A DNA stretch of 32,000 nucleotides from Geobacter metallireducens GS-15 (GCF_000012925.1 NC_007517.1:1860001-1892000), one strand, 5' to 3'. Counted from the first letter of the stretch, positions 4,953-27,498 are shown. Notes: generated by a model not told the origin, from the sequence alone. Translations and numbers: made by a program.

Positions 4953-6113
4953 GTGATGACTGAAACCGCACCACCTCGCATGGACCTTCGCCTGGCCGCG
5001 CTCCTGATAGGGGTCATCCTTTCAACGGTCGATTCCAGCGCACTCAACCTGGCTCTGCCGACCCTCGCCGCCCATTTTGGAACCGATGCCAGCGCCGTCC
5101 AGGGGGCAATTTCGCTCTATCTGGTCGGTTCTGCCCTTGCGTTTCTTCCCCTCTCCAGCATTGCCGGACGGGTCGGGACAGTCAGGGTCTACCGCGTGTC
5201 CCTGGCTGCGTTCGCCGTCATCTCCCAATTCCTTGCCTTTTCTCCAAACCTTCAGACGCTGCTTGTACTCCGTTTTCTCCAGGGAATTGCCGGTGCCGGC
5301 ATTGTCGGTCTTGTCCCGGGGATGACTGCCGCCACCTTCAGGGAGCACCGGGGATGGGCGTTGGGCATGGTTTCCGGCTCGGTGGCCGCGGGTACCCTGA
5401 TCGGCCCGCCCCTCGGGGGCTTCCTGGTTGAATGGTTGGGTTGGCGTTCCATCTTCTACATAAACCTTCCGTTCGGCTTGCTGGCGTTGTTGTTGTCGAG
5501 CCGTTTGACCGAACTTATGGGTGTCGGCCTTGTCGAGGGACTGCGACGGATTATCCGTGCTCCCCGTTTCATCTTGGCACTGACCTCCACTGTCTGCTTT
5601 TTCATCCACTCCTTCGGCACCAACCTCATCTGGCCCTTTTATCTGGAAGCGGGAGGGATGTCTCCCGCCAAGGTGGGGCTGTTCATGCTGGTTCCGCCCG
5701 TCATGCTCATGGTCGCCGGTCCATCGTGCGGCAAGATGTCCGACAGTAGAGGGTATGACCGGGTAAGCTGGCTTGGGAGTGCCGTGCTGATGGCTGCTTC
5801 CCTGGGCCAGGGGCTCAGCGGCTCCGTTATCATCGGCTTGATGGGGATCGGCATCGGGAGGGCACTGTTCCAGGCTGCCAACAACGCGGCCGTTTTGTCA
5901 CAGGCTCCCGAGGGGACGAACACGGTCGCCTCTGGCCTTCTGTCCATAGCCAGAGTGAGCGGTCAGGCGTTGGGAAGCGTTCTTGCCGGTATCTTATGGG
6001 GAAAACTGGAACATGGCGGCACCAGCAGGGCGTTTCTCGTGGTCAATCTGGTGATGGCCGCTGTCGCCGCACTCGCCGGGTGTCTGATCATCGGACGGAG
6101 TCGGATCAAGTAA
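4953..6113 (+). CDS. MFS transporter (12 predicted TM segments, drug/H+ antiporter-like)
   Basis: The 386-aa hydrophobic ORF has an N-terminus (LSTVDSSALNLALPTLAAHFG) and LRFLQGIAGAG resembling DHA-type MFS motifs. I count about 12 hydrophobic spans. The start could be the GTG at 4953 or the ATG at 4956. Confidence 0.85.
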   Translation: MMTETAPPRMDLRLAALLIGVILSTVDSSALNLALPTLAAHFGTDASAVQGAISLYLVGSALAFLPLSSIAGRVGTVRVYRVSLAAFAVISQFLAFSPNLQTLLVLRFLQGIAGAGIVGLVPGMTAATFREHRGWALGMVSGSVAAGTLIGPPLGGFLVEWLGWRSIFYINLPFGLLALLLSSRLTELMGVGLVEGLRRIIRAPRFILALTSTVCFFIHSFGTNLIWPFYLEAGGMSPAKVGLFMLVPPVMLMVAGPSCGKMSDSRGYDRVSWLGSAVLMAASLGQGLSGSVIIGLMGIGIGRALFQAANNAAVLSQAPEGTNTVASGLLSIARVSGQALGSVLAGILWGKLEHGGTSRAFLVVNLVMAAVAALAGCLIIGRSRIK

Positions 6114-6141
6114 TCGCGGATCAGCGATAGTGGTCAGCGAA

Positions 6142-9100
6142 TTATCGACGCAGGGTCCTCTTCGAACGCCAATTGCCCACCCATTCACTCATACGTTCCA
6201 GGACCACATAGAACACCGGAACGAACGGGATGGCGAGAAGGGTGGAGGAGATCATGCCCCCGAAGACGACAGAGCCGATGGCACGTTGGCCCGCCGAACC
6301 CGCTCCGAACGCGACCACAAGCGGAACGACTCCCAGGATGAACGCGAACGAGGTCATGACGATCGGACGGAACCGGCGGCGGGTTGCCTCGATGGCGGCC
6401 TCGGCTATGGACATCCCTCCGTGGTGGAGGTCGCGGGCGAATTCCACGATAAGGATGGCGTTTTTGCTCGCCAGTGCAATCATCAGCACCAGCCCCACCT
6501 GGGTATAGAGGTTGTTGTCGTAGCCCCGGATGATGAGGGCCAGAAGGACTCCGACCAGCGCTATCGGGACCACGAGAATGATCGCTGCGGGCGAAGTCCA
6601 GCTTTCGTACAGGGCCGCCAGGACCATGTAGACCAGGATGACGGAGAGGGCGTAGATGAAGTAGGCTTGTTTGCCCACCTTCTTTTCCTGGAAGCTGGTG
6701 GAGGTCCAATCGAAGTCAATCCCCTCAGGGAGCTTTTCGGCGGCCATCCTCTCCATCAGAGTCAGGGCCTGACCGGAGCTGAAGCCGGGGGCGGCAGAGC
6801 CGAAAATGGCGGCGGCCGGGTAGAGGTTGTACCGGGTTATCAGTTCGGGGCCCTGGGTCTGCCTGACATTAATCAGGGCGCCGAGGGGAACCATCTCCCC
6901 CCGTTGGTTGCGCACATAGAGTTTTCCTATGTCCTCGGGCCTGATGCGGTAAGGGCTGTCGGCCTGAATATAGACCTGGAAGACCTGGTTGTATTTGTTG
7001 AAGAGGTTCACGAACGAGGAACCGAGGTATGCCTGGAGGGTCTCGAAGACATTCGACAGGGGCACCAGGAGGGCCTCCGCCTTGGTCCTGTCGATATCCA
7101 GGTACAATTGGGGGCTGCTTAGGCTGAAGGTGGAGGCGAGGCCCTTCAGGTTAGGCTGTGAGTTGCCGCTCCGCATCAGCTCGTCAGCGGCATCCTTGAG
7201 CCGTTCAAGACCGACGCTCCCCCGATCCTCCACCATCATCTGGAAACCGCCAGTCTGACCGAGGCCCCGGATCGGCGGAGGGATGACCACAAACGCCTGT
7301 GCCTCCTGGATCTCGGCAAGCTGGCGATTGATGCTCGCTATGATCCTGTCCTGGTTCAGGGCGGAGCCCCGCTCGCTCCAGTCTTTGTAAACGACGAAGG
7401 TGGTGGACATGTTTGAGACGTTGGCACCATCCAGGATCGACAACCCGCCGATGTGGACCCAGAAGTCGACACCGGAGGTCTTTTTGAGAATCTCGTTGAT
7501 CTGCACCGCCACCTTCTCCGACCTGGGCTGTGAGGCCCCTTCGGGGATGCGGGACACCAGGACGCCGTAACCCTGGTCCTCGGTGGGGAGAAAGCCGAGG
7601 GGGCGATTTATGAATACCAGGAAAGAGGTTGTGACGATGATGGCGAAAATGACAACGAACAGGACCGGCCGTTTCACCATCCGGGCGACGATCCCAATGT
7701 AGACATTGGTGAAGGACTGGAACGCCCGGTTGAATCCCCGGTAGAACCAGTTAGGCCGCTTTTCCCCGCGCGGCCTCAGCCACAAGGCGCACTGGACCGG
7801 CTTCAGGGTAAGTGCGTTGATGGCGCTGATCACGGCCGTTGAGGCGATTACCAGGGCGAACTGGCGGAATATCTGCCCGGTGATTCCCGGGAAGAAGGCC
7901 GCCGGAAGGAAGACCGCGACCAGGGCAAGGGTAATCCCCATCACCGGCCCGGTCAGTTCCCGCATCGCCTTGATGGTGGCCTCCTTCGGGGCAAGCCCCT
8001 TTTCGATATAGTATGAACTGCTCTCCACGATAACGATGGCGTCGTCCACCACGATCCCGATGACCAGCACCAGCGCGAACAGGGTCATCAGGTTGATCGT
8101 GAAACCGAGTCCGGCCATGGCGATAAAGGCGCCAATGATGGTGACCGGCACAGTGGTGGCCGGAACCAGCATCGCCCTGATGTTCTGCAGGAACAGGAGG
8201 ATGACGAAGAGCACCAGGAATGCGGCTATGAAGAGTGTGTCGTAGACGCTGGAGATCGCCTCCCTGACAAACTTGGTGGTGTCGTAGCGGATGGCGTATT
8301 TCATCCCGTCGGGGAATTTCTTGCTCATCCCGTCCAGGGCCTTGTAAACGCTGTCGGCCACATCGATGGCGTTGGCGTCCGGAAGGGCGAAAACCACGAT
8401 CTGGGCTGATTTGTGGCCGGTGAACCGGGCGTAATTGCTGAAGTTCTGCTGGCTCAGATCCACCCGTGCCACGTCTCGCAGCCGCACCACCTGCGGAGCC
8501 GGGCCGGTTGCGGTCTTGACGACGATATCTTCGAACTGCCCCACATCAGAGAGCCGGCCAAGGGTGGTAACGGTGAACTGGAAACTCTGGCTCGCCGGAA
8601 CCGGCGGGGCCCCGAGCTGTCCCGCCACCACCTGGACGTTCTGTCTCTGGATGGCGGTCAGAATGTCGCTTGTGGTGAGGTCGAAGCTCTGGAGTCTCTT
8701 GGCGTCGAGCCAGACCCTCATGCTGTAGGGACCAGCGCCGAATACCCGCACCTGGCCGACGCCGGGGAGCCTGGCCAGCGGGTTTTGCAGGTTTATGACG
8801 GCATAGTTGGAGAGGAAGATCTCCTCGAATCTCTCATCGTCCGCATAGAGGCTGGCCACCAGCAGGATGTTGGGCGAGACTTTTTTTACGGTGACTCCCT
8901 GCTGCTGCGCCCCGCCCGGAAGTTGGGCCAGGGAGGTGTTTACCAGGTTCTGGACAAGAGCCAGGGAGGTATTGAGGTCGGTTCCGACATCGAAGGTGAT
9001 GGTCAGGTTATAGGAGCCGTCACTCCCGCTGGTGGACGACATGTAGATGGAGCCTTCCACGCCGTTCACCGCCTGTTCGATAGGTACTCCGATGGTCGCC

Positions 9101-20427: not shown

Positions 20428-20856
20428 TCATCCTGCCGTTTTGAACATGATGACCTCGGCCTCGGCCATGGTCTGACCGTCCAGTTCGATGACCCCGCGC
20501 ACATCGATGAGCCGGCGCCGGTCGCCAACGATCTCGCCGATAACGGTTACCTCGCTGCCGGTGGGCACCGGTTTCCGATAGCGCAGGCGCATTTCACTGG
20601 TCACCACCTGGAGTCCTCGGGCCATGCAGGCCTGGACGCATATTTCGTCCATAAGGGCCGAGAGGATGCCGCCGTGGACTATCCCCTGCCACCCCTGGAA
20701 ATGCTCCGGAATACTGACCCGGGTTTCAGCCCGGCCCTTTTCCGGATCGGTTGTGAAAACGGCGTGAAGTCCGATGGGGTTATTGCTGCCGCAGATGAAG
20801 CAGTGGTTGTCGTCGATTACCTGCATGGGGCCTCCTGTGGTTTCATGATTTGACAC
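20428..20856 (-). CDS. PaaI-family hotdog-fold thioesterase
   Basis: CFICGSNNPIGLHAVF...QGWQGIVHGGILSALMDE is a typical PaaI/YbgC-like hotdog pattern. An alternative start is Met11 at 20826. Confidence 0.85.
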   Translation of the reverse strand: MSNHETTGGPMQVIDDNHCFICGSNNPIGLHAVFTTDPEKGRAETRVSIPEHFQGWQGIVHGGILSALMDEICVQACMARGLQVVTSEMRLRYRKPVPTGSEVTVIGEIVGDRRRLIDVRGVIELDGQTMAEAEVIMFKTAG

Positions 20857-21008
20857 TCGGCAATCCAGTAGATCTGTTTGTGCTGGACGCGGGTCAGGGC
20901 AGTCAGTTGTCGCTCGGCGGCGGCGCGGTTGGGGAAGGTGCCGACCAGAAACCGGTTGCCGTTGTCGTCCTGGCGCCAGAGTTCAAAGGCGGTTTCGTTC
21001 CGGTTCAC
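20817..21008 (-). CDS. Small conserved-looking hypothetical protein (63 aa)
   Basis: The GTG start lies immediately after the DUF3443 stop (TGAGTG). FELWRQDDNGNRFLVGTFPNRAAAERQL...HKQIYWI resembles small proteins I recall from deltaproteobacteria. The 3' end overlaps the thioesterase ORF. Confidence 0.5.
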   Translation of the reverse strand: MNRNETAFELWRQDDNGNRFLVGTFPNRAAAERQLTALTRVQHKQIYWIAECQIMKPQEAPCR

Positions 21009-22262
21009 TCAGTAAGCCCAGTAGGGACCGGTGCCCAGGCTGGAATTCCTTCTATCAATTCCCACGAAGACGGAACGGCCATAGAAGAAGGGGAGGCCCC
21101 AGTCGAAACTGCTTCCAAAGCCCGGCCCGCCAAGTTCAGCGAAGGCACTATTTGACGTGCTGAACAGACTGGTCGCATTGCCTATGTAGAATGTTACACG
21201 ACCCCCTGTTGCGTTGTTGCCGTAGTTTATGGCCTCCAGTTGCAATGGGGACGACAGGGAGACTGGTGGGCAGTACCAGTCCTGGTGGGGAGACGAGCAG
21301 ACAGGCAAGAGACTTGTGGGAACATTGAAAAAAAGTCCATTCGAGCCGCTGTCGATGAAACTTGTATCGAAGGTCGTACCATTGAATTTAGTTGTGAAAT
21401 ATCCAGCATAATAGCCAGAATTATCGATGAAGTATGGGGTCGTACCGGAGGAGGCGTTGTTCGTCTGGGTGTCAATTCCGAGGATGAGCTTCCCGCCGGC
21501 TGTTCTGGACCCTCCCGCGGGGATGCTCGTCATTTGCACGATAACGCCGTTGTTGTCTTGGTCCAGATGGGCCACTGGATTCTGTACTTGGCTGGCAAGT
21601 GGAACGGGGGTCGAGGAGCAGTTTGATCCGCTACAGGTGAAATACACGTCGTTAGTGTCGCTCCTGGCACATCTGTCTCCACAATCCTCGACAAACAGAC
21701 CAACGCCGAGAATCCCGTTATAACCGGCATCATCGGGGTTTGTATCTAATCCTTTTACTTGCGGTGATTGACATTGGCTAGGGATGTTGCCTTGGAAATA
21801 TGTGGCATCGATAATCTGTATCGGGATATTGGCGGCGGTTTCTCCGCCGAGCTTCACATCGGCAATCCTTACTGGTCCCCAAGTCCCGGTGTTATCCAGA
21901 TATTGAATGCACTCGGCGATGGGAGCGGAACCGACCAGTACCTGTGGCAATGAAATATTGGGTGCGGCCTGCTTGAAAATCCGCAGGCCATAACTGCCGG
22001 TGTCCAGGAGCACGTTGTCGACGGTCTGGCATTTTCCCGTGTCGGGTTCACAGATCGTGACGGTGACGGTCGGTTTGTTGGGATATGAGGGGTCATTGAC
22101 GGTGATGTCCAGCACATTGGCCGCCGTGTTGGTTCCACCGCCACTGCCACCACCATCTCCGCCTCCTCCTCCTCCGCCTCCCCCTCCTCCTCCGCCGCCA
22201 CCACCACAGCCGGCAACAAGTCCAACGAGAAGGATTAAAGAAACAGCTTTATTTGATTTCAT
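21009..22262 (-). CDS. DUF3443-like lipoprotein with pepsin-like (A1) aspartic-protease motifs and a poly-Gly tether
   Basis: It has a lipobox (LVAGC19) and then a linker of about 24 residues, mostly Gly. It carries LLD87TGS, GILGVG, GGKLILGID, FID304SGS and DWGLPFFYGRSVFVGID in pepsin order, with several short Cys-Cys loops. 417 aa. Confidence 0.85.
   Translation of the reverse strand: MKSNKAVSLILLVGLVAGCGGGGGGGGGGGGGGGGDGGGSGGGTNTAANVLDITVNDPSYPNKPTVTVTICEPDTGKCQTVDNVLLDTGSYGLRIFKQAAPNISLPQVLVGSAPIAECIQYLDNTGTWGPVRIADVKLGGETAANIPIQIIDATYFQGNIPSQCQSPQVKGLDTNPDDAGYNGILGVGLFVEDCGDRCARSDTNDVYFTCSGSNCSSTPVPLASQVQNPVAHLDQDNNGVIVQMTSIPAGGSRTAGGKLILGIDTQTNNASSGTTPYFIDNSGYYAGYFTTKFNGTTFDTSFIDSGSNGLFFNVPTSLLPVCSSPHQDWYCPPVSLSSPLQLEAINYGNNATGGRVTFYIGNATSLFSTSNSAFAELGGPGFGSSFDWGLPFFYGRSVFVGIDRRNSSLGTGPYWAY
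22134..22205 (-). repeat. (GGN)n homo-glycine codon tract (G16-D-G3-S-G3) in the lipoprotein gene
   Basis: The plus strand reads as a C/T-rich run, tccaccgccactgccaccaccatctccgcctcctcctcctccgcctccccctcctcctccgccgccaccacc, covering codons 20-43 of the gene. Confidence 0.9.
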
Positions 22263-22719
22263 TTATTGTCACTCCGTCAGGGACCAAGCCAGGCACGTAA
22301 GCTCGCCCCTGCAGGTTGCGCATATGTCCCCACTTTTCGACCACGACCTGGTTGGCCTTTACCTGAGAACGCCGCTGCCCCCGCTGTCGGGGTGCCTGCC
22401 GTAAAGCCTGCTTGTACTCGGTGAGGTACGACCCCAGCAGCAGCGTGAGATCGGGGTGGGAAACCCCGTTCCAGGCCACAGCAAACACGATGCCCGACGG
22501 CGCGATGTACTCACGGACGGTGTTACCTCCGGTTACGAGTTCCTGAACCGTATAACCCTTGCGGGTCGTGGCGGCGCGCTGGGTAGCGGAAAGTGCCTTG
22601 CGGTCAACGGCCACCGATGCCGCAGGTTCACCAAGGGCTGCTTCCGACTGCCGGGCAGGCATGAAGGGTGTTGTCAGAAGTCCGGTAACAAGGCTCATGG
22701 CGACGAATATTCTCCTCAT
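22249..22719 (-). CDS. DUF2844-like secreted protein
   Basis: A signal peptide ([22 protein letters not shown]) is followed by [44 protein letters not shown]...[23 protein letters not shown], which I recognise from memory as DUF2844-like. An AAGGAG RBS is present. It overlaps the downstream lipoprotein gene by 14 nt. Confidence 0.8.
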
Positions 22720-22925
22720 ATCGGTACCGCTCCTTTCAGGTGTTGAAATTGCGGCAGATATTTTCCCACTCTAGCCGAAGGGTGTCCAGTAAATCCTGGC
22801 AATTCCGGCACCGCTCCGGTGGAGGCGTGGAAAAGAAAGGGTGTAAAAATCGGAGTCCCTCTTGCGCAACCCGTCTCTTCACGGGACAATTGCGATACAG
22901 CAGCCAACTATTCCGCGAGGTGGCC

Positions 22926-25999: not shown

Positions 26000-26803
26000 T
26001 CAAGGGGAGTTGGTTGGAGGGAGGGCGATACGTTTAGTCCGAAGCTTCAACGCCCCTTCGGCGTCCACGGATTCTTCCCTGCATTCGATGGCTTGGGAGC
26101 CGGCCCATTTGGGGTCGCGGCAGCGCCGGATTTCCGCGAGCTTTTCCCCTGATCTGCCGAACACGACCACATCATGGAGGAGGTGATTGCCCGCCTCCTG
26201 CCGTGCGCAGTGAAATGCGATACGCCCCTGTTGCGTGGCCATGGGGCCGGGACTGGGGCAGTTTTCTTCCAGTACCAGTCGTTTGCCGGACGGTTCCGCC
26301 AGCATCACGCTCTCCCGCCTTCCTTCGAGGGGACCATCGGCTGCTGGAGCAAAGGAGCGCACGATGACGATGCTGCGCCCGTCGGGAAGGGGGCGGGCGG
26401 TGGAGATCCGATCCTTCTCCTCCCAATTGACCGCCGTTTCCGGGACATTCGCGACGGACGGGTCCACTGCGGTCACCCGCAGGGCCAGGAGTGTACCCGG
26501 TCGTGCGTCGCAGCGCTTTACGTACGCATCCTTTGCGGTGGCCCGCACGCGGGAAAGAGCGGCACGCGCTGCTCCGGGAGAGGCCGCAATCTCGGGCACC
26601 CAGGCAAAGATGCTCCTCTTGTCGCCACAATCACCGGTCCGGACAACGAGGGCGTTGGGGGCAGTGGGGACCAATGACTTGGCCTTTCGCGCTATCCCCG
26701 TGGCGGTGCGGTCGCTGGCGCCGACCACGAGCCAGAGCCGCTCTCCCCAAGCCGGCAGTGTTGAGCCAACGATCATGGCTGCAACAAGGGCTGCCTTGAT
26801 CAC
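26000..26803 (-). CDS. Secreted hypothetical protein (267 aa), coupled to the M15 peptidase gene
   Basis: The GTG start overlaps the upstream stop (GTGA). It has a signal peptide (MIKAALVAAMIVGSTLPAWG). The N-terminal ~90 aa have a loosely SPOR-like beta-alpha-beta pattern. I recognise no family with confidence. Confidence 0.65.
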   Translation of the reverse strand: MIKAALVAAMIVGSTLPAWGERLWLVVGASDRTATGIARKAKSLVPTAPNALVVRTGDCGDKRSIFAWVPEIAASPGAARAALSRVRATAKDAYVKRCDARPGTLLALRVTAVDPSVANVPETAVNWEEKDRISTARPLPDGRSIVIVRSFAPAADGPLEGRRESVMLAEPSGKRLVLEENCPSPGPMATQQGRIAFHCARQEAGNHLLHDVVVFGRSGEKLAEIRRCRDPKWAGSQAIECREESVDAEGALKLRTKRIALPPTNSP

Positions 26804-27498
26804 AGGCCGCTCTCCCGTTTGACCCGGCCAAGTTCATCATTAGGCACCAGCTGTACGTGGGCCCAGTCGCGGAAATTCACCCAGTCCCCTCCCCAGACGA
26901 GGCCCAGTTCCTTGGCCTCCTCGCCAAGGGCTTTCCAGAATCCCGTCTGTTCCGCCTCCGGAGCCCAGCCGAAGCGGCTGTCCACAATATCTGCCGCATA
27001 GGCGTTGGGGATTCCGTCGGGATGCTGGGCGTTGTGGAAGCTGAACTTCACCTTGCTGTTCCCCTGATAGTAGAGCTGCATCTGGACCGCCACCGAGCGC
27101 CAGCCATAAAAAACCTTCGGCTGGAAGCCGCGTCCGGCGAGCGCCTGCAGAACCGCTGCAACCTTCTGGCGCAGTTCCGGATGCATGCTCTGGAGTTTCT
27201 TCTCTTGGGACCATCGGGCGCTGTCGCCGCACCACGGGGAAAGATCGGCAGTGGCTGCGCCACCCGTGCCCGCAAGTTTGAGCCAGGTCTTGCGCCCCGG
27301 TTCTATGAGCCCGTCGGGGTTCGTCATGAACGTGGCCTGGAAGCTGCGTATCGCCGCGATGGTGTCCTTGCCGCAAACGCCATCAATCCCCTTTGGGTCA
27401 AAGCCCTTGGACTTCAGGAGGCTTTGGACTGTTTCCACATCATTTTCGATATTTTTCCCCAAATATCCGACTGAAGCCTGGAGTACACTCATTAACAT
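26800..27498 (-). CDS. Peptidoglycan-binding domain + M15-family (VanY/endolysin-like) zinc peptidase, no signal peptide
   Basis: The N-terminal PG_binding_1 pattern is VETVQSLLKSKGFDPKGIDGVCGKDTIAAIRSFQ. The C-terminal M15 metal ligands lie in FSFHN...AADIV...GGDWVNFRDWAHVQL. The start is likely the ATG at 27492 (GAGGAG RBS 8 nt upstream) rather than 27498. Confidence 0.85.
   Translation of the reverse strand: MLMSVLQASVGYLGKNIENDVETVQSLLKSKGFDPKGIDGVCGKDTIAAIRSFQATFMTNPDGLIEPGRKTWLKLAGTGGAATADLSPWCGDSARWSQEKKLQSMHPELRQKVAAVLQALAGRGFQPKVFYGWRSVAVQMQLYYQGNSKVKFSFHNAQHPDGIPNAYAADIVDSRFGWAPEAEQTGFWKALGEEAKELGLVWGGDWVNFRDWAHVQLVPNDELGRVKRESGL

Follow-up and report, generated by a model that had tools for sequence, protein, structure and literature searches.

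DUF3443 and DUF2844: a predicted lipid-anchored, pepsin-type aspartic peptidase and its near-obligate secreted partner in Geobacter metallireducens and other bacteria

The fold and chemistry of pepsin are textbook knowledge. Aspartic proteases of bacteria are in general rare (PMC6819658). Shewasins A and D are bacterial A1 pepsin homologues, reported from seven species, which are cytoplasmic, carry no signal peptide, propeptide or disulfides and are proven pepstatin-sensitive acid proteases (PMC2761423; PMC4814920). The secreted bacterial aspartic proteases described to date are either single-lobe, retropepsin-like enzymes or members of the mycobacterial PecA group (PMC12239564; PMC4140852; PMC6819658). 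Of the retropepsin-like RloA/RimB and APRc some are secreted or membrane-associated in Gram-negative bacteria (PMC12239564; PMC4140852), and PecA (PE_PGRS35), an aspartic protease located at the cell surface and bearing DTG and DSG motifs, has catalytic activity and processes proteins of that surface (PMC6819658). Here we describe a gene pair of Geobacter metallireducens GS-15, at positions 21,009 to 22,719 of a 32,000-nucleotide (nt) stretch of its DNA (GCF_000012925.1 NC_007517.1:1860001-1892000; hereafter the window), which encodes a DUF3443 lipoprotein and a DUF2844 secreted protein. The pair probably constitutes a two-gene cassette made up of a lipid-anchored, extracytoplasmic, bilobed pepsin-type aspartic endopeptidase (clan AA) and a dedicated secreted subunit.

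Both genes lie on the minus strand, as do all features of the pair given below. The open reading frame (ORF) 21009..22262(-) encodes 417 amino acids (aa) and ORF 22249..22719(-) encodes 156, about 129 of them in the mature protein, which reproduces the coordinates, the 417-aa length and the roughly 130 mature partner residues of an original prediction made from the sequence of the window. The DUF3443 and DUF2844 assignments of that prediction are likewise borne out, both Pfam models scoring far above their cut-offs. The 417-aa product matches DUF3443 (PF11925) with 478.3 bits against a cut-off of 25 (E=1.9e-143; residues 46-417 on model positions 2-367 of 367), and the 156-aa product, 100% identical to G. 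metallireducens ABB31906.1/WP_004511389.1, matches DUF2844 (PF11005) with 164.7 bits against 22.4 (E=1.3e-48; residues 26-155 on model positions 2-130 of 130). NCBIfam held no model matching either protein. The only other Pfam match was to Asp_protease_2 (PF13650) at residues 79-162, with 16.2 bits against a gathering threshold of 24.3 (E 0.017). Among 110 homologues of the lipoprotein the weak Pfam matches that recur are all to clan-AA aspartic peptidase models, namely Asp_protease_2 (19/110), gag-asp_proteas (4/110) and PE-PGRS_C (2/110). A full scan of 1.84 billion representative proteins placed 2327 clusters at 50% identity in the DUF3443 family at E<=1e-3, 1075 of them at E<=1e-30, and the genome collection contains matches in at least 550 species. 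A search of PDB sequences with the whole protein returned only artefacts of its poly-Gly tether, which was therefore excluded from subsequent searches.

The AlphaFold2 model of the DUF3443 domain (residues 46-417, 21012..22127), calculated from the alignment of these 110 diverse homologues (39-70% identity), has a predicted local distance difference test score (pLDDT) of 96.5 and a predicted template modelling score (pTM) of 0.94. Compared by Foldseek with 350,542 PDB chains, it gave 307 matches at E<=1e-3, and the best 50 of these 307 are all family A1 peptidases, with E from 1.3e-12, a probability of 1.00, template modelling (TM) scores of 0.55/0.61 and 13-18% identity; endothiapepsin, rhizopuspepsin, penicillopepsin, BACE1, plasmepsin II and the Candida SAPs are among the A1 matches. 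The 110-homologue alignment was also compared by hhalign with an A1 profile, which consisted of five pepsin-family sequences and, in a validating search of the PDB, recovers chains of pepsin, cathepsin D, plasmepsin, rhizopuspepsin and endothiapepsin at E 1e-120 to 1e-152. The two aligned over 267 columns at E=2.9e-4, and the model, the Foldseek matches and this alignment together define the bilobed pepsin-like domain.

In the hhalign register the N-lobe catalytic motif D87-T-G-S (21993..22004; D87 codon 22002-22004) aligns with pepsin D32-T-G-S; it is part of the LLDTGS of the original prediction, which is present at residues 85-90, although the nucleotides quoted for it, 21993-22004, cover DTGS only. 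The flap-like segment I119-G129 (IQYLDNTGTWG, 21876..21908), which includes Y121, W128 and G129, places Y121 on pepsin Y75. The hydrophobic-hydrophobic-Gly motif of the N-lobe psi-loop, N182-G-I-L-G-V-G188 (21699..21719; within YNGILGVG, residues 181-188), aligns with pepsin D118-G-I-L-G122, G183-I-L-G186 falling on G119-I-L-G122, and the G-K-L-I-L-G-I-D of AGGKLILGID (255-264) pairs with S-V-V-L-L-G-G-I-D of pepsin. The C-lobe catalytic motif D304-S-G-S (21342..21353; D304 codon 21351-21353), within FIDSGSNGLFF (302-312), aligns with D215-T-G-T, and the C-lobe psi-loop motif F386-D-W-G-L-P-F-F-Y-G395 (21078..21107), which overlaps the C-terminal DWGLPFFYGRSVFVGID at residues 387-403, brings W388-G389 onto L301-G302, with G389 as the counterpart of G302 in pepsin I-L-G. 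These motifs, together with the short loops CEPDTGKC (71-78), CGDRC (194-198) and CSGSNC (210-215), were found at the residues where they had been predicted. A comparison of the N-lobe with the C-lobe aligned only the 15-residue catalytic motif. The lobes of pepsin are likewise similar only around the catalytic Asp (Rawlings and Bateman, PMC2761423), and this test of internal duplication is uninformative beyond its agreement with known pepsin behaviour. The apposition of D87 and D304 is implied by the global structural match of the model together with the in-register alignment, and the DUF3443 domain is almost certainly a pepsin-like homologue with an intact Asp dyad.

The two aspartates, whose conservation the original prediction had made a test of its claim, are kept in 98-99% of the 110 homologues. 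D87 is present in 108/110, T88 in 106/110, and G89 and S90 in 107/110 each; in the C-lobe motif D304 is kept in 109/110, and S/T305, G306 and S/T307 in all 110. R94 is invariant (110/110), as are G129 of the flap-like segment and G389 of the C-lobe psi-loop (both 110/110), while W128 is kept in 108/110, G183 and G186 of GILG in 106/110 and 109/110, and P391 and F392 of the C-lobe psi-loop in 108/110 each. Each of the ten Cys residues of the mature domain is found in 103-110 of the 110 sequences. This conservation of catalytic motifs and cysteines is far beyond chance. We conclude that DUF3443 shares the bilobed pepsin fold as a distantly related family of its own, and that its catalytic apparatus is complete and under selection; by sequence criteria it is not A1. 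We predict, with good confidence, that it is an active protease.

A search of roughly 8 million papers for DUF3443, DUF2844, PF11925 and PF11005 returned nothing relevant, the PF11xxx matches being Plasmodium gene identifiers, and the NCBI names remain DUF3443 or DUF2844 domain-containing protein. The original prediction knew of no assigned function for this pair. With the eukaryotic A1 enzymes (PF00026; pepsin, endothiapepsin, rhizopuspepsin, BACE1, plasmepsins) DUF3443 shares a single-chain bilobed arrangement, D-T-G-S and D-[ST]-G-[ST] motifs, a psi-loop motif in each lobe, an aromatic residue at the Tyr75 position of the flap, an inter-lobe motif resembling GG-x-L-x-x-G-G-x-D, and an acidic protein with predicted secretion and disulfides. 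Unlike them it has no propeptide, carries a lipobox and a Gly tether, has a separate and near-obligate partner gene, and goes undetected by Pfam Asp, at 13-18% identity and a TM score of about 0.55-0.61. The five conserved, predicted disulfides of DUF3443 do not coincide by sequence position with the three of pepsin, C71-C78 even preceding the first Asp. Like the shewasins, DUF3443 is bacterial and bilobed, has no propeptide and keeps the Asp dyad intact; unlike these true A1 enzymes by sequence, it is predicted to be exported, lipidated, Cys-rich and partnered, and it occurs in at least 550 species.

The resemblance to PecA/PE_PGRS35, PE_PGRS16 (PDB 4EHC) and PE26 lies in a single-chain, pepsin-like C-terminal domain with DTG and DSG motifs, placed after a secretion or anchoring module and a Gly-rich linker, and two DUF3443 members match PE-PGRS_C (PF20729) weakly, below threshold (best E 0.004). 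However, the PecA group relies on type VII secretion via the PE domain and has a PGRS linker, whereas DUF3443 has features of Sec export and a lipobox with poly-Gly or Big_2; the PecA group also has no DUF2844-like partner, and the two Asp residues are 177 residues apart in PecA and 217 in DUF3443. With the retropepsins DUF3443 shares the predicted clan AA chemistry and, in its N-lobe, the sub-threshold match to Asp_protease_2. Retropepsin-like enzymes consist of a single lobe and must homodimerise, whereas DUF3443 has both lobes in one chain and finds its best structural matches among the pepsins.

The N-terminus of the lipoprotein carries a signal peptide ending in the lipobox L-V-A-G-C19 (22206..22262), which read from the sequence has the form of a Sec-type signal followed by [LVI][ASTVI][GAS]-C. 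From Cys19 the mature chain passes through a Gly-rich tether of 24 residues (residues 20-43, G16-D-G3-S-G3; 22134..22205) directly into the domain, with no propeptide. These three features had been predicted for this protein and proved general across the family: in the 110-homologue alignment the column of the lipobox Cys shows a conservation of at least 90%, the lipobox is followed by a CGGG pattern in nearly every one of 80 genome loci, and homologues carry tethers or Big_2 domains at the N-terminus, not prosegments. Many homologues have one or more Big_2 Ig-like domains between lipobox and protease domain, an architecture that suggests a long stalk displaying the protease away from the membrane. 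The ten conserved cysteines and the acidic domain (isoelectric point, pI, 4.1-5.0 in 67/67 loci) fit an oxidising extracytoplasmic compartment. To judge from its sequence, DUF3443 is very likely an extracytoplasmic lipoprotein that would be exported and lipidated, with disulfide pairings and a membrane location and face that are likewise putative.

Two observations on individual proteins may be added here. The longest Big_2-stalked member has 1793 aa (L084 4001..9382, P0302), and DUF2844 still lies directly upstream of it. The exact 417-aa product is absent from a collection of 15 billion proteins, where the sole version, from Logan assemblies, has 368 aa and a GTG start (Val50); this version (P0001) would lose signal peptide, lipobox and tether, and its start is probably a gene-caller error, since homologues conserve the full N-terminus (22115..22262 region).

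The genomic pairing of the two families was followed in 80 genome loci anchored on DUF3443, from Geobacterales, Nitrospirota, Anaeromyxobacter, Smithella, Paraburkholderia, Trinickia, Acidobacteriota, Neisseriaceae and Bdellovibrionales, of which 79 were assessable, L013 being cut by a contig end. DUF2844 is encoded on the same strand in 77 of the 79 and directly upstream in about 75, and the paired loci span at least six phyla (Geobacterales, Nitrospirota, Myxococcota, Syntrophia, Burkholderiales, Acidobacteriota, Neisseriales). The exceptions are L025, in which the copy lies downstream, L073, in which it lies about 700 nt upstream, and L077, a true orphan. In metagenomes, with DUF2844 as the anchor instead, DUF3443 comes next in 53 of 53 loci that extend at least 700 nt downstream; a further 13 shorter contigs have no detectable DUF3443, and most of these have a signal-peptide ORF starting at the junction, typically with a lipobox and then a Big_2-like stalk. 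Co-occurrence across genomes, on which the original prediction had staked the pairing, is thus seen in both directions. The second paralogous cassettes and the giant Big_2 form also retain a DUF2844 partner.

Junctions between the two genes range from -26 to +13 nt: Geobacterales and Anaeromyxobacter have -14, Nitrospira and Acidobacteriota have -4 or -1, and Paraburkholderia has +8 to +13, about +11. In G. metallireducens the predicted 14-nt overlap is real, the two genes sharing ATGAAATCAAATAA at 22249..22262, where the partner's TAA occupies 22249-22251 and the lipoprotein's ATG 22260-22262, an arrangement that would imply stoichiometric co-expression. No third gene is conserved around the cassette across the loci examined, and the neighbourhood therefore gives no clue to a substrate; a 63-aa ORF, the downstream hotdog thioesterase, PBP1A and the glp genes were considered as cassette members and rejected, as these neighbours are not conserved. 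DUF3443 and DUF2844 are likely to form a physical or functional complex.

The distribution of the cassette offered some observations of its own. Two complete cassettes, L005 and L083 (L083 3544..5197), occur in Geobacter sp. OR-1. The L083 copy directly adjoins an integrase gene of phage type and the genes for TumE and an AlpA-like protein, a hint that a mobile island can carry the cassette. Tandem second DUF3443 copies occur in L010 (2..1288 and 5307..7098) and L033 (2193..3978 and 5077..7134), and the cassette thus duplicates locally; in L033 the first copy, broken across three reading frames, resembles a pseudogene. In L001 (1..4769 and 7686..8846), from a Geobacter-related genome, the cassette has on one side a GH94 protein resembling cyclic beta-1,2-glucan synthase and on the other a GT4 glycosyltransferase accompanied by an amylase-like gene, a context that is not conserved elsewhere. 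A large share of the cassette genomes (L006, L010, L014, L020, and MFD and SMAG metagenome-assembled genomes, MAGs) are from peat, palsa and other acidic-soil metagenomes or belong to Paraburkholderia, Trinickia and Acidobacteriota. It may be speculated that such acid habitats are compatible with an acid-active envelope enzyme.

The DUF2844 partner (22249..22719) begins with a predicted signal peptide of residues 1-27 (22639..22719), read from the sequence, with cleavage between SEA and ALGE. Geobacter-type and Paraburkholderia-type members, at about 40% identity, share 18 invariant positions, which include R69, a G-x-V-F-x-x-x-W-x-G-x-x-x-P-D-L block, G131, R134, G138 and Y141; H132, adjoining G131, is nearly invariant. 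At the mature N-terminus Leu29-Gly30 is invariant, and a pattern of A-x-A then x-L-G is conserved across phyla. The model of the partner (pLDDT 82.5) has an alpha-beta4-alpha-beta3 arrangement (helix, four strands, helix, three strands), with its lowest confidence (pLDDT 58-70) in the conserved N-terminal 20 residues. Foldseek comparison of this model with the PDB gave nothing at E<=1e-3, and 71 DUF2844 members compared with Pfam gave no recurring family and no PepSY or BLIP match. The best fold match, itself weak, is Staphylococcus aureus SAV1118 (E 0.012, TMq 0.54), followed by the likewise weak DUF2874 (4ipb, 4hbr, 4k61) and BLIP-like 4fr9 matches (E 0.03-0.16, TM about 0.35). BLIP and PepSY domains are proteinaceous hydrolase inhibitors; such BLIP/PepSY-like proteins, built of small helix and antiparallel-sheet repeats, are among the partner's best, though weak, structural matches, and the DUF2874 periplasmic proteins presumably have PepSY-like, inhibitor-type folds. 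In the window the partner is basic (net +8, pI 10.2) and the enzyme acidic (net -14, pI 4.3).

On the mechanism we propose, the lipoprotein would be exported by Sec and lipidated on Cys19, its 24-residue poly-Gly tether holding the enzyme off the membrane, a part that would be taken in other members by Big_2 Ig-like stalks. The domain would be oxidatively folded outside the cytoplasm and stabilised by disulfides (five Cys pairs), and D87 and D304 would activate water and cleave peptide bonds as do D32 and D215 of pepsin. The partner, translated just before the enzyme under translational coupling and separately exported, would then bind the enzyme and, most likely, regulate it as a 'prosegment in trans', holding it latent and/or assisting its folding, and could act through its poorly ordered N-terminal Leu-Gly segment or through the basic residues R69, H132 and R134. 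Release of the partner might occur at lower pH, as in pepsinogen, which is plausible here because a basic partner (pI 10.2) meets an acidic enzyme (pI 4.3). As mycobacterial PecA suggests by analogy, the enzyme might cleave proteins of the cell surface or envelope, or else peptides from the environment.

The idea of a prosegment in trans is suggested because the enzyme has no prosegment and the partner is made first, and because the partner shows the sequence constraint expected of a stable binding partner, has a conserved flexible N-terminus and complements the enzyme in charge here. Its analogues are the pepsinogen prosegment and the aspartic-protease inhibitors Ascaris PI-3 and yeast IA3. 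As with these, the basic partner could bind the acidic enzyme of this locus and its flexible N-terminus could enter the cleft or extend a sheet, and, like a prosegment, it is synthesised ahead of the enzyme or along with it. Unlike any of them, the partner is the product of a separate gene with its own signal peptide, has a compact fold of about 129 aa and shows no detectable similarity. A role as an inhibitor or prosegment-like regulator is the most plausible of those considered for the partner, though less likely than not, and it is conceivable but doubtful that DUF2844 both catalyses folding and keeps the propeptide-less enzyme latent until a trigger such as envelope acidification in acidic soils or peat.

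Several points weigh against the reading of an active, partner-bound, pepsin-type enzyme. Pepsin-type enzymes usually need acidic pH, and Geobacter is a neutrophile. The claimed similarity to pepsin, which stands by Foldseek (A1, E about 1e-12) and by the hhalign register, drew a blank in Pfam and in searches of a hidden Markov model (HMM) against sequences: neither the query nor any of the 110 homologues gave a Pfam Asp (PF00026) match at E<=1, and the family HMM (110 homologues) found no A1 chain among PDB sequences at E<=10, which puts the relationship beyond HMM-to-sequence reach. The hhalign probability against the A1 profile is only 41%. The flap Tyr of the original prediction is indeed Y121 in this protein, aligned with pepsin Y75, but the position is Phe in 72/110 homologues and Tyr in 38/110. 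For the partner, the best PDB fold matches do not go beyond E>=0.012 and TM 0.35-0.54. The partner is basic in only 28/67 loci, and in Paraburkholderia it is near neutral; charge complementarity, which holds here and in those 28/67 loci and fails in Paraburkholderia, was therefore reduced to partial support for a prosegment-like partner in general. Finally, the orphan L077 (5746..7092, a Bdellovibrionales MAG) is an intact DUF3443 gene with no DUF2844 within 6 kb on either side; it keeps DTGS and DSGS and a lipobox-like N-terminus, and is the only such case among the 79.

Some of these points would equally suit a partner that is a folding, assembly or sorting chaperone, or an adaptor recruiting substrates to an always-active enzyme. 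The upstream position, tight coupling and near-obligate pairing fit a helper as well as an inhibitor, the charge of the partner is not consistently basic, and an enzyme with five conserved disulfides and no propeptide may need help in folding; in addition, 7/71 partners match a phage tail assembly chaperone model weakly (best E 0.0039), which is probably noise. However, the partner has no significant similarity to a known chaperone or to a LolA-like fold (3bk5, probability 0.08), an orphan enzyme exists without it in L077, and its best, still weak, fold matches are the BLIP-like and DUF2874 periplasmic proteins, so that we regard this alternative as unlikely.

A second alternative makes the partner a dedicated substrate, a secreted pro-protein cleaved to an active fragment or peptide. 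Its variable, Arg-rich loop at about residues 106-122, with lower pLDDT, lies between two structured halves and might be cut, its conserved N-terminus follows directly after the signal peptide, and PecA-type bacterial surface aspartic proteases do process specific secreted proteins (PMC6819658). Yet the whole partner is a conserved, compact alpha/beta domain with its 18 invariant residues distributed along the chain, unlike a carrier of a pro-peptide; the putative cleavage loop is its least conserved part, shorter and not basic in Paraburkholderia; and there is no downstream effector logic, no further genes being conserved. We consider a substrate role distinctly improbable.

The pepsin-like domain itself might be a non-catalytic binding protein, comparable to the plant TAXI-type xylanase inhibitors or to pseudo-enzymes. 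No activity has been reported for any DUF3443 member, the flap Tyr is often Phe, and the bacterial pepsin-fold domain of PE_PGRS16 was crystallised but showed no detectable activity (PMC6819658). Pseudo-enzymes, however, normally lose their catalytic residues, whereas 98-100% of the 110 homologues retain the two D-[TS]-G-[ST] motifs, down to the Ser/Thr after the Gly, and DTGS and DSGS persist even in the orphan L077, which leaves a non-catalytic role most improbable. A reading in which the motifs resemble those of pepsin by chance and the gene upstream is an unrelated neighbour, as the commonness of short D-T/S-G motifs and the negative sequence-only searches against A1 might suggest, is effectively refuted by a Foldseek probability of 1.00 with 307 structures, the best 50 all A1, by six motifs in register with pepsin, by near-invariant conservation, and by pairing in 77/79 and 53/53 loci across phyla with nothing else nearby conserved.

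Candidate expression signals of the pair were also read from the sequence. A GGAG Shine-Dalgarno-like element lies 10 nt upstream of the partner's ATG (22730..22733), and a second, within the partner gene, 9 nt upstream of the lipoprotein's ATG (22272..22275). Upstream of the pair, TGGACA-17-GAAAAT at 22760..22788 is a weak candidate for a sigma-70-like promoter, its 9/12 match being not above shuffled expectation. The neighbours in the window, PBP1A, a hotdog thioesterase, glycerol kinase and a GlpD-like oxidase, are unrelated to the pair. The GTG start codon of the 63-aa ORF 20817..21008(-) follows the DUF3443 stop codon without a gap, and the ORF runs into the hotdog thioesterase ORF 20428..20856 across the start annotated for the latter; its SPOR match is faint (E 0.14), and it stands beside the cassette at no other locus. 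A few kb from DUF3443/DUF2844, a 267-aa ORF at 26000..26803(-) with no Pfam match at E<=1e-5 abuts 26800..27498(-), which encodes a 232-aa protein with a PG_binding_1 peptidoglycan-binding domain, and the two resemble an uncharacterised envelope gene pair.

What appears new is a large, sequence-distinct, lipid-anchored and partner-dependent branch of bilobed aspartic peptidases, as predicted here; it is plausible that Pfam clans, an InterPro superfamily or ECOD already place PF11925 in an acid-protease clan, which tempers the novelty. If the reading of the pair as a pepsin-type protease and its subunit is correct, a function would be assigned to two sizeable DUF families, and if the partner is indeed a prosegment in trans, the pepsin fold would have its first zymogen system split over two genes, and bilobed pepsin-type proteases would be old and widespread in the bacterial envelope, not a rare import from eukaryotes. 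The near-obligate presence of DUF2844 makes the regulation of a propeptide-less pepsin-type enzyme directly testable, and Paraburkholderia, Trinickia and Geobacter are genetically tractable hosts. Should DUF3443 be active, bilobed aspartic proteases anchored in the envelope would make up thousands of sequence clusters, in contrast to a few cytoplasmic enzymes, and a new protease class would be added to bacterial envelope proteolysis. The gene duplication and fusion that gave rise to the pepsin fold may then have happened in bacteria.

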